From a virus (taxonomy: Duplodnaviria > Heunggongvirae > Uroviricota > Caudoviricetes): a stretch of DNA of 9,492 nucleotides. The stretch lies in IMG/VR virus record IMGVR_UViG_2526164691_000020. One strand, given 5' to 3'. Position 1 is the stretch's first letter. The number at the start of each line of letters is the position of its first letter. A program made the position numbers and the translations under genes. Positions 1,806 to 1,909 of this stretch are shown piece by piece. A model generated the notes under the pieces. That model did no database searches. It was given only the letters and a program-made list of their open reading frames with translations, and had not been told where the DNA came from.

Positions 1806-1829
1806 AAAAAAAACCCGCCTGGCGACGGG
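1806..1829 (-). terminator. tR'-like intrinsic terminator directly downstream of the late promoter
   Basis: Minus-strand RNA CCCGUCGCCAGGCGGG (6-bp stem incl. one G-U, loop GCCA; complement of 1814-1829) followed by U8 (complement of 1806-1813), abutting the downstream ATG. Confidence 0.6.
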
Positions 1830-1860
1830 TGTAAAAAATCTTACTAACGTCAGGCATAAA

Positions 1861-1909
1861 ACGCCCATCGTTAGGGCAAACTTACCACAGATTCGGGAAA
1901 AATCAACAA
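1861..1909 (-). promoter_or_regulatory. PR'-like late promoter with lambda-type pause/qut motif
   Basis: Minus strand: -35 TTGATT (complement of 1901-1906), 16-nt spacer, -10 TAAGTT (1879-1884), then AACGATGGG in the initial transcribed region. Compare recalled lambda PR' GGTAAATTTGACTCAACGATGGG with window GGTAAGTTTGCCCTAACGATGGG. Lies 23 nt past the Q stop. Confidence 0.6.

Follow-up and report, generated by a model that had tools for sequence, protein, structure and literature searches.

A predicted compact late-gene switch of the lambda Q family in a Qin-like lambdoid prophage

At the late promoter PR' of phage lambda, a −35-like sequence (TTGACT) located 1 bp upstream of the pause element is the site for the repositioned region 4 of sigma. 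The repositioning of sigma region 4 has been described (PMC9388147), as has the architecture of lambda Q, in which residues 1 to 44 and C-terminal residues build a torus and deletion of residues 1 to 38 abolishes antitermination (PMC9388147). For phage P22, the database record annotates PR', qut, tR', and a probable 5' end of the late RNA, which coincides with the leading A of AACGATGGA; in the phi80 record, the annotated features are pR', a Q site within the promoter spacer, and a terminator. Tree et al. (2014) described a moron-site arrangement that comprises Q, PR', a moron, convergent sRNAs, and a conserved ORF (PMC4104026). The stretch of DNA analyzed here (9,492 nucleotides of the virus record IMGVR_UViG_2526164691_000020, referred to as the window) has a layout that agrees with this arrangement.

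The window was 99.8% identical to the Qin-like cryptic prophage of Escherichia coli DEC9B. On the minus strand, the order from 5' to 3' was relB-relE-hokD, ydfU (DUF968), rusA, Q, the cassette that is the subject of this study, a TerB family pseudogene, DUF3927, and nanS. Beyond the window, nanS is followed by a holin and a lysozyme gene, with IS elements at the far end; the corresponding same-strand order in DEC9B is nanS, class II holin, YdfR, and lysozyme, so that late genes lie downstream of the cassette. An identical cassette precedes stx2 in phage Stx2_EH1910, and a holin gene is located downstream in SEN34, SE1, phi80, and P22. Part of the 1.4-kb Q region was matched by 3,072 of 5,426 complete genomes. 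Searches of Rfam also revealed two convergent RNAs between DUF3927 and nanS, namely, AgvB (an anti-GcvB sRNA, 96.5 bits; positions 888 to 949, plus strand) and STnc100 (131 bits; 950 to 1139, minus strand), as well as the sok antitoxin RNA (RF01794, 99 bits; 8373 to 8544, minus strand), which lies beside hokD and, with relBE, is typical of a Qin-type early region. We consider it very probable that the locus is a late-gene regulatory cassette of a lambdoid prophage with an antiterminator of the lambda Q family, and we infer its start site, pause, termination, and Q dependence by homology.

The Q antiterminator gene (1912 to 2731, minus strand) was assigned to the quuQ/mEp460 type of the lambda Q family by its match to PF03589 and its homology to lambda Q, and it is a pseudogene in the window. 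It is located directly upstream of the cassette and on the same strand; its reading frame ends at a TAG codon (1914 to 1912), 5 nt upstream of the −35 hexamer. The intact orthologue, the 273-amino-acid quuQ product of the Stx2a phage Stx2_EH1910 (99.3% DNA identity), matched PF03589, the family of lambda Q, with an E value of 5e-50. Q of the window type shared 32% identity with lambda Q over its full length and aligned with the lambda Q chains of the loading-complex structures 7UBM and 7UBN. A lambda-like qut beside the Q gene is thus expected, since this Q is a homologue of the lambda family. Matches to the Q21 (PF06530) and Q82 (PF06323) types, which are those of phages 21, 933W, and 82, were not obtained for the window-type Q, which matched PF03589 only, and no AACGATGGG motif was found downstream of the PF06530-type Q gene of the Stx2a phage Stx2_14040.

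Relative to lambda Q, the window-type protein contains an insertion of about 66 amino acids in the zinc-ribbon arm, with extra CxxC motifs. In quuQ-type proteins these are CxxCxGxG motifs that gave a subthreshold match to DnaJ_CXXCXGXG, and in lambda Q the zinc-ribbon arm contacts the Q-binding element (QBE). The distance between the GAAT of the promoter spacer and the −10 hexamer was about 3 bp shorter than that in lambda. These features were noted when locus L004 (2570 to 3391) was compared with locus L001 (87 to 710). The insertion and the shorter distance may be linked.

The cassette lies on the minus strand, and each of its elements was found where the original prediction had placed it. 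Its predicted PR' promoter has the sigma-70 form TTGATT-16 nt-TGnTAAGTT and is located just downstream of Q, with both hexamers maintained in more than 200 relatives. The −35 hexamer TTGATT (1906 to 1901), read from the sequence, was invariant in the quuQ-type relatives. The 16-nt spacer TTTCCCGAATCTGTGG (1900 to 1885), a candidate Q-binding element, was nearly invariant in more than 200 relatives and carries at its 3' end the TG of an extended −10 element (−15/−14), so that GGTAAGTT occupies positions 1886 to 1879 of the minus strand. The −10 hexamer is TAAGTT (1884 to 1879), which corresponds to TAAATT in relatives and in lambda. It is separated from the predicted start by the 6-nt segment TGCCCT (1878 to 1873), which differed more between relatives than any other part of the cassette. 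Together with T1879, this variable segment reads TTGCCC, a match at 4 of 6 positions to the TTGACT of lambda. The hexamers are weak, matching the consensus at 7 of 12 positions in the window and at 8 of 12 in relatives; with only 7 of 12 positions matched, PR' was not flagged by a generic promoter scan of the window. The promoter call was retained on comparative grounds.

The predicted transcription start is A1872, from which the initial transcribed sequence reads AACGATGGG (1872 to 1864), that is, the predicted sigma-dependent pause element AACGAT (+1 to +6) followed by GGG. On the non-template strand, the element is thus a −10-like hexamer with A2 and T6 in the initial transcribed region. 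AACGATGGG equals positions +1 to +9 of lambda PR' and lies at the same 6-nt distance from the −10 hexamer (lambda, GGTAAATTTGACTCAACGATGGG; window, GGTAAGTTTGCCCTAACGATGGG). An alignment with lambda PR' had been proposed as a check of the original prediction. Lambda PR' reads GGTAAATT-TGACTC-AACGATGGG, and 19 of these 23 positions agreed in the window, with no difference in spacing. A single occurrence of TAARTT-N6-AACGATGGG, free of mismatches, was found in the window, whereas the expectation by chance was 0.03 even when 2 mismatches were allowed (6 of 200 shuffles). The claim of a lambda-like initial transcribed sequence behind the −10 hexamer was therefore borne out, at a level far above chance. 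The assignment of +1 to A1872 is supported by P22, in which the annotated 5' end of the late RNA falls on the first A of its equivalent sequence. The pause itself is presumably at +16/+17 (1857 to 1856), a position placed by analogy with lambda PR'; U17-G18, together with G8, fits the pause consensus G(−10) Y(−1) G(+1). A second hairpin, TGCCC-TAACGAT-GGGCG (1878 to 1862), was listed as terminator-like by the scan and was rejected because it spans +1 and lacks conservation (the mEp460 sequence is CGTCATAATGATGGGC).

To place these elements in a comparative frame, more than 200 loci with the Q type of the window or with the motif were collected. Their diversity was drawn from viral contigs and GenBank phages; a single-protein scan of genome contigs gave 2 loci. 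Near-invariant in the more than 200 relatives were the −35 hexamer TTGATT, the spacer TTTCC(C/G)GAATCTGTGG, the −10 hexamer TAAATT, and AAYGATGGGC. The segment between −10 and +1, on the other hand, took the forms TGCCCT, TGCTCT, CGTCAT, TCCCCT, TACCCT, and CGCCCT. The terminator always started at about +41 to +44, with at least 6 different sequences, and behind it the relatives differed, with a mini-ORF leader, a tRNA, or other modules. Functional promoter and pause elements should leave just such a picture, with invariant sites on either side of variable segments. The spacer is the presumed Q-binding element: it does not resemble the lambda spacer, but the phi80 record places its Q site at the equivalent position. 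A part of the spacer, TTTCCCGAA, was common to Kpn_R1 and phiEt88, the Q proteins of which are 52 to 62% identical.

A wider comparison, across Q proteins that are 31 to 62% identical, revealed the same layout: a −10 hexamer, 5 to 7 nt, a −10-like hexamer usually followed by GGG, and then a terminator, with predicted RNAs of 59 to 74 nt. This layout was seen in K-12 Qin ydfT, SfV, Stx2c phages, Kpn_R1, SEN34, SE1, phiEt88, YeP2, phi80, and P22. The pause hexamers of the family were AACGAT, AATGAT, AACGCT, AACGGT, AAGGAT, AACACT, AACAGT, and CATGAT, all of which contain A2 and T6. In E. coli K-12 MG1655 (locus L208, 6380 to 6500, minus strand), we observed an apparently intact TTGCAT-17-TAAAAT-N6-AACGATGGGC, with hairpin and terminator, from which an unannotated RNA of about 66 nt is predicted between ydfT and ynfS. 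A literature search for the quuQ/mEp460-type cassette and for quuQ/ydfT late promoters retrieved no specific work, and the papers found for the motif string and flank (AACGATGGGCG/CT) were all unrelated.

The tR' intrinsic terminator (1830 to 1806, minus strand) was identified by scanning and folding. It consists of a 7-bp G+C-rich stem (ACCCGTC/GGCGGGT, 1830 to 1813) with the loop GCCA, followed by 8 T residues (1813 to 1806; U8 in the RNA, U7 in relatives), and is located between the predicted pause site and the late genes. It was among the strongest of 21 terminator-like sites in the window, and the expectation of a terminator shortly downstream of the start was thus confirmed. The predicted RNA of about 65 nt (67 nt as folded) had a folding energy of −22.7 kcal/mol (z = −3.9), a stability that none of 200 shuffles reached. 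Overall, homology and comparison support the predicted compact unit of PR', pause/qut motif, and tR', the product of which would be an RNA of about 65 nt that extends from +1 near 1872 to a 3' end near 1806. No Rfam family matched the site at gathering thresholds, and a permissive search gave only subthreshold matches at chance level.

Minimum free energy and centroid structures of this RNA also contained a 5' hairpin (+1 to +27; 1872 to 1846, minus strand), in which AACG and UGGGC of the pause-element transcript pair with +18 to +27. Among 17 distinct sequences (quuQ, Kpn_R1, SfV, and the K-12 Qin group), 98% of the cells were paired, compared with 25 to 42% in slid controls. Six of nine pairs showed one-sided variation only (G-C to G-U, U-G to U-A), no pair varied on both sides, and transversions were seen in the loop and at the unpaired A23. 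In 21 of 23 cassette types, those of lambda and P22 among them, folding predicted a hairpin that begins at +1 or a few nt from it and pairs at least 5 of the first 9 nt. The exceptions were phiEt88 and SE1 (AACA...UGUU), in which a similar stem is possible, but minimum free energy folds leave +1 to +8 unpaired. In more distant members with altered pause hexamers, two-sided changes that match each other seemed to be present as judged by eye, for example, in YeP2 (AAGGAU...UUCUU; G3-C20). The energy of the 5' hairpin with respect to shuffles of its 3' part was modest (fractions of 0.02 to 0.49), and the column-shuffle control is uninformative for this hairpin, as its 5' arm is invariant. Common descent of the sequences, modest energies, and a 5' arm that the pause element holds constant make the evidence for the 5' hairpin only suggestive. 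The hairpin was predicted at loci L208, L209, L211, L214, L215, L220, L221, and others.

We tentatively propose, as a possibility that we regard as rather doubtful, that most short RNAs of the lambda Q family share a two-hairpin architecture, in which a 5' hairpin pairs AACGAUGGG with +18 to +27 and has a pairing-preserving 3' arm, selected either as a part of the switch or for the protection of an sRNA. If so, the 5' hairpin could limit backtracking or aid escape after Q loading; alternatively, it could shield the 5' terminus in a family of stable prophage sRNAs (about 60 to 75 nt) that have their own functions. The searchable literature contained no description of this 5' hairpin that we could find, and a hairpin shared by the predicted RNAs of most cassettes may be new.

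Downstream of the terminator, an ATG (1805 to 1803) adjoins the U-tract and opens an 8-codon mini-ORF (MTEITPVQ*, 1805 to 1779, minus strand) that ends with TAA, 92 nt upstream of the point at which homology of the TerB remnant starts. It is probably not a gene: in relatives, the frame showed nonsynonymous changes and a premature stop, other loci had no ATG, and the sole purine run upstream of the ATG sits within the terminator stem. The observation that the U8 tract abuts an ATG stands, but not the proposal that readthrough transcripts start translation immediately there; as a translation start, the ATG was rejected, given its 8 codons and an ORF that is not conserved in relatives. Sequence comparison showed a conserved leader of about 115 nt (1805 to 1690, minus strand) that is also present behind a different Q, of the PF06530 type, in Stx2a phages. 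Copies of tR' and leader (1834 to 1690) with about 90% identity were found behind this unrelated Q in several Stx2a phages (locus L005, 2500 to 2650), which indicates that Q and qut form one exchange unit that meets its cargo at the terminator or close to it. A structured RNA was sought in the 115-nt leader with RNAalifold, and no two-sided pair changes were found (covariation term of +0.3).

The leader is followed by a TerB/TciA remnant (1692 to 1309, minus strand) that contains a nonsense codon (TAG, 1607 to 1605); alignment with tciA of phage JLK-2012 showed that its first 17 codons are missing, the start codon included. The DEC9B copy is annotated with an internal stop. A recombination joint of the remnant is located at about 1692. 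TTG 1687 was considered as a TerB start and rejected, as its frame is not that of TerB and the true frame has no start codon. The original prediction had held that everything downstream is Q-dependent. This fits intact relatives such as Stx2_EH1910, with its cassette before stx2, but it does not hold at this locus, where Q is frameshifted, the −10 hexamer is altered, and TerB is dead; the Q dependence of the TerB-like gene is moot because the gene is dead.

As judged from its sequence, the cassette in the window is a decaying copy, with a frameshifted Q, an A-to-G change in the −10 hexamer, and a dead first downstream gene. Compared with the intact quuQ of Stx2_EH1910, the Q gene has lost a single base pair at each of two places, one at about 2702 (codon 10) and the other within an A7 run (about 2000 to 2005). 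DEC9B shares the deletion in the A-run, and its Q copy is annotated as frameshifted. The frameshifts affect both ends of the protein, which in lambda form the Q nozzle; given the role of residues 1 to 44 and of the C-terminal residues in the lambda Q torus and the loss of antitermination without residues 1 to 38, the Q allele of the window is predicted to be inactive. Behind the conserved spacer, the collected loci had 178 copies of TAAATT, 3 of TAAAAT, 1 of TAAATC, and 1 of TAAGTT, the last being DEC9B. The change to TAAGTT was thus restricted to the window/DEC9B lineage among about 190 spacer-anchored copies in the collected loci. The prophage as a whole contained IS elements and pseudogenes and was in an advanced state of degradation.

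The window and DEC9B differed in 20 places, in 14 of them by a 1-bp indel, which makes the extent of decay uncertain. The eighth T of the U-tract (1806) and a T at 1843 were single-base insertions with respect to DEC9B and all relatives. These two insertions and the Q frameshift at 2702, all of them specific to the window, may be assembly errors. Over the whole window, the single-base indels relative to DEC9B suggest indel-type assembly errors in its source. Local Q-dependent readthrough has probably been lost here, unless another prophage supplies an intact Q of the same type. Production of the short RNA may continue in lower amounts.

In an intact copy that follows the lambda paradigm (PMC9388147), PR' would fire constitutively with sigma-70 from A1872, and sigma region 2 would rebind AACGAT on the non-template strand, halting the complex at about +16/+17 (1857/1856). 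Without Q, the complex would escape, terminate at 1808 to 1806, and free an RNA of about 65 nt composed of the 5' hairpin, an A/U-rich linker, and the terminator hairpin (tR' from about +43). With Q bound at the spacer, Q would load onto the paused complex and convert it into a terminator-resistant polymerase. This modified polymerase would ignore tR' as well as terminators farther downstream and transcribe the moron region, nanS, and the lysis genes.

Two other explanations of the locus were weighed against this switch. It could be argued that the match to lambda is a coincidence or a relic that lacks promoter activity and that the hairpin with its U-tract merely ends the early transcript that contains Q; the weak hexamers missed by the generic scan and the heavy degradation of the prophage by IS elements and pseudogenes would fit such an origin. 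Against it, the chance expectation of the match was 0.03, the motif keeps its position in more than 200 relatives and next to Q genes whose products are only 31 to 62% identical, P22 and phi80 have annotated equivalents, and a variable segment between invariant −10 and pause elements is the pattern of a functional site. We regard this explanation as highly improbable.

The alternative that the cassette has been retained mainly as the gene for a constitutive, trans-acting sRNA that, like StxS, acts on host or phage mRNAs appears unlikely, yet clearly less so, and it would explain why the cis elements have outlived Q. A precedent is StxS, an Hfq-dependent by-product of PR'-tR' transcription that its authors proposed to be a general phenomenon (PMC7547250), and the compact, stable fold of the predicted RNA, with its 5' hairpin, A/U-rich linker, and long U tail, resembles an Hfq-binding RNA. 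The energy of the hairpin, however, was only modestly better than that of shuffles (fractions of 0.02 to 0.49 across types), and no Rfam family was matched at either gathering or permissive thresholds. Beyond the pause element, positions +10 to +33 are also conserved, and the 3' arm of the hairpin varies without loss of pairing, but this conservation may equally reflect the needs of pausing, escape, and Q loading or recent common descent. Despite the broken Q and TerB genes, the rest of the cassette is intact; the mutation in the −10 hexamer, on the other hand, argues for decay rather than selection in this copy. We therefore retain the reading as a late switch of the lambda Q family, which at this locus is probably dead. 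In general, the cassette marks the gate of late transcription (nanS and lysis genes; stx2 in sister phages) for a very common E. coli prophage module, in which Q and qut travel as one mosaic unit with varied cargo joined at the terminator.

The biology predicted here is that of the textbook, and the cassette is an uncharacterised example of the late switch of the lambda Q family, with P22 and phi80 as the closest annotated analogues. StxS of Stx1 and Stx2a phages (Sy et al. 2020) is similar in that a constitutive short RNA ends at tR' past a late promoter, in a lambdoid prophage from the E. coli prophage pool. It differs in that a 258-nt primary transcript is processed to 74 nt and that Hfq binding and function have been shown for StxS (PMC7547250). 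No homology between the predicted RNA and StxS was found via Rfam, a comparison in which the StxS sequence itself did not take part. The K-12 Qin ydfT (quuQ) locus shares the backbone relBE-hokD-ydfU-Q, TAAAAT-N6-AACGATGGGC, the 5' hairpin, a terminator, and a predicted RNA of about 66 nt, whereas its Q is 40% identical to the window type, spacer and terminator are different, and csp genes lie downstream.

The gene 23-PR'-qut-tR' region of P22 and the gp17-pR'-terminator region of phi80 are similarly compact, with a terminator about 30 to 75 nt past +1 and RNAs of about 60 to 74 nt. Their pause element at +1 is AACGATGGA or AACGCTGGG, and promoter, Q/qut site, +1, and terminator have already been annotated in them; Q subtypes, spacers, terminators, and downstream genes are different. 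With the Q-PR'-qut-tR' region of lambda, the source of 6S RNA, the cassette has in common a PF03589-type Q, TAAATT in intact copies, 6 nt to +1, AACGATGGG, an intrinsic terminator, and late/lysis genes downstream. It differs in the spacer, which contains the QBE in lambda and is unrelated (TATTGAATAAAATTGGG in lambda versus TTTCCCGAATCTGTGG in the window, which is 1 nt shorter), in the only partial presence of TTGACT (TTGCCC), in the approximately 66 extra amino acids of its Q, and in the length of the RNA, which is 194 nt for 6S RNA and about 65 nt here. Compact cassettes of 60 to 75 nt are thus the usual form in the lambda Q family, and the 194-nt 6S unit of lambda is the outlier.
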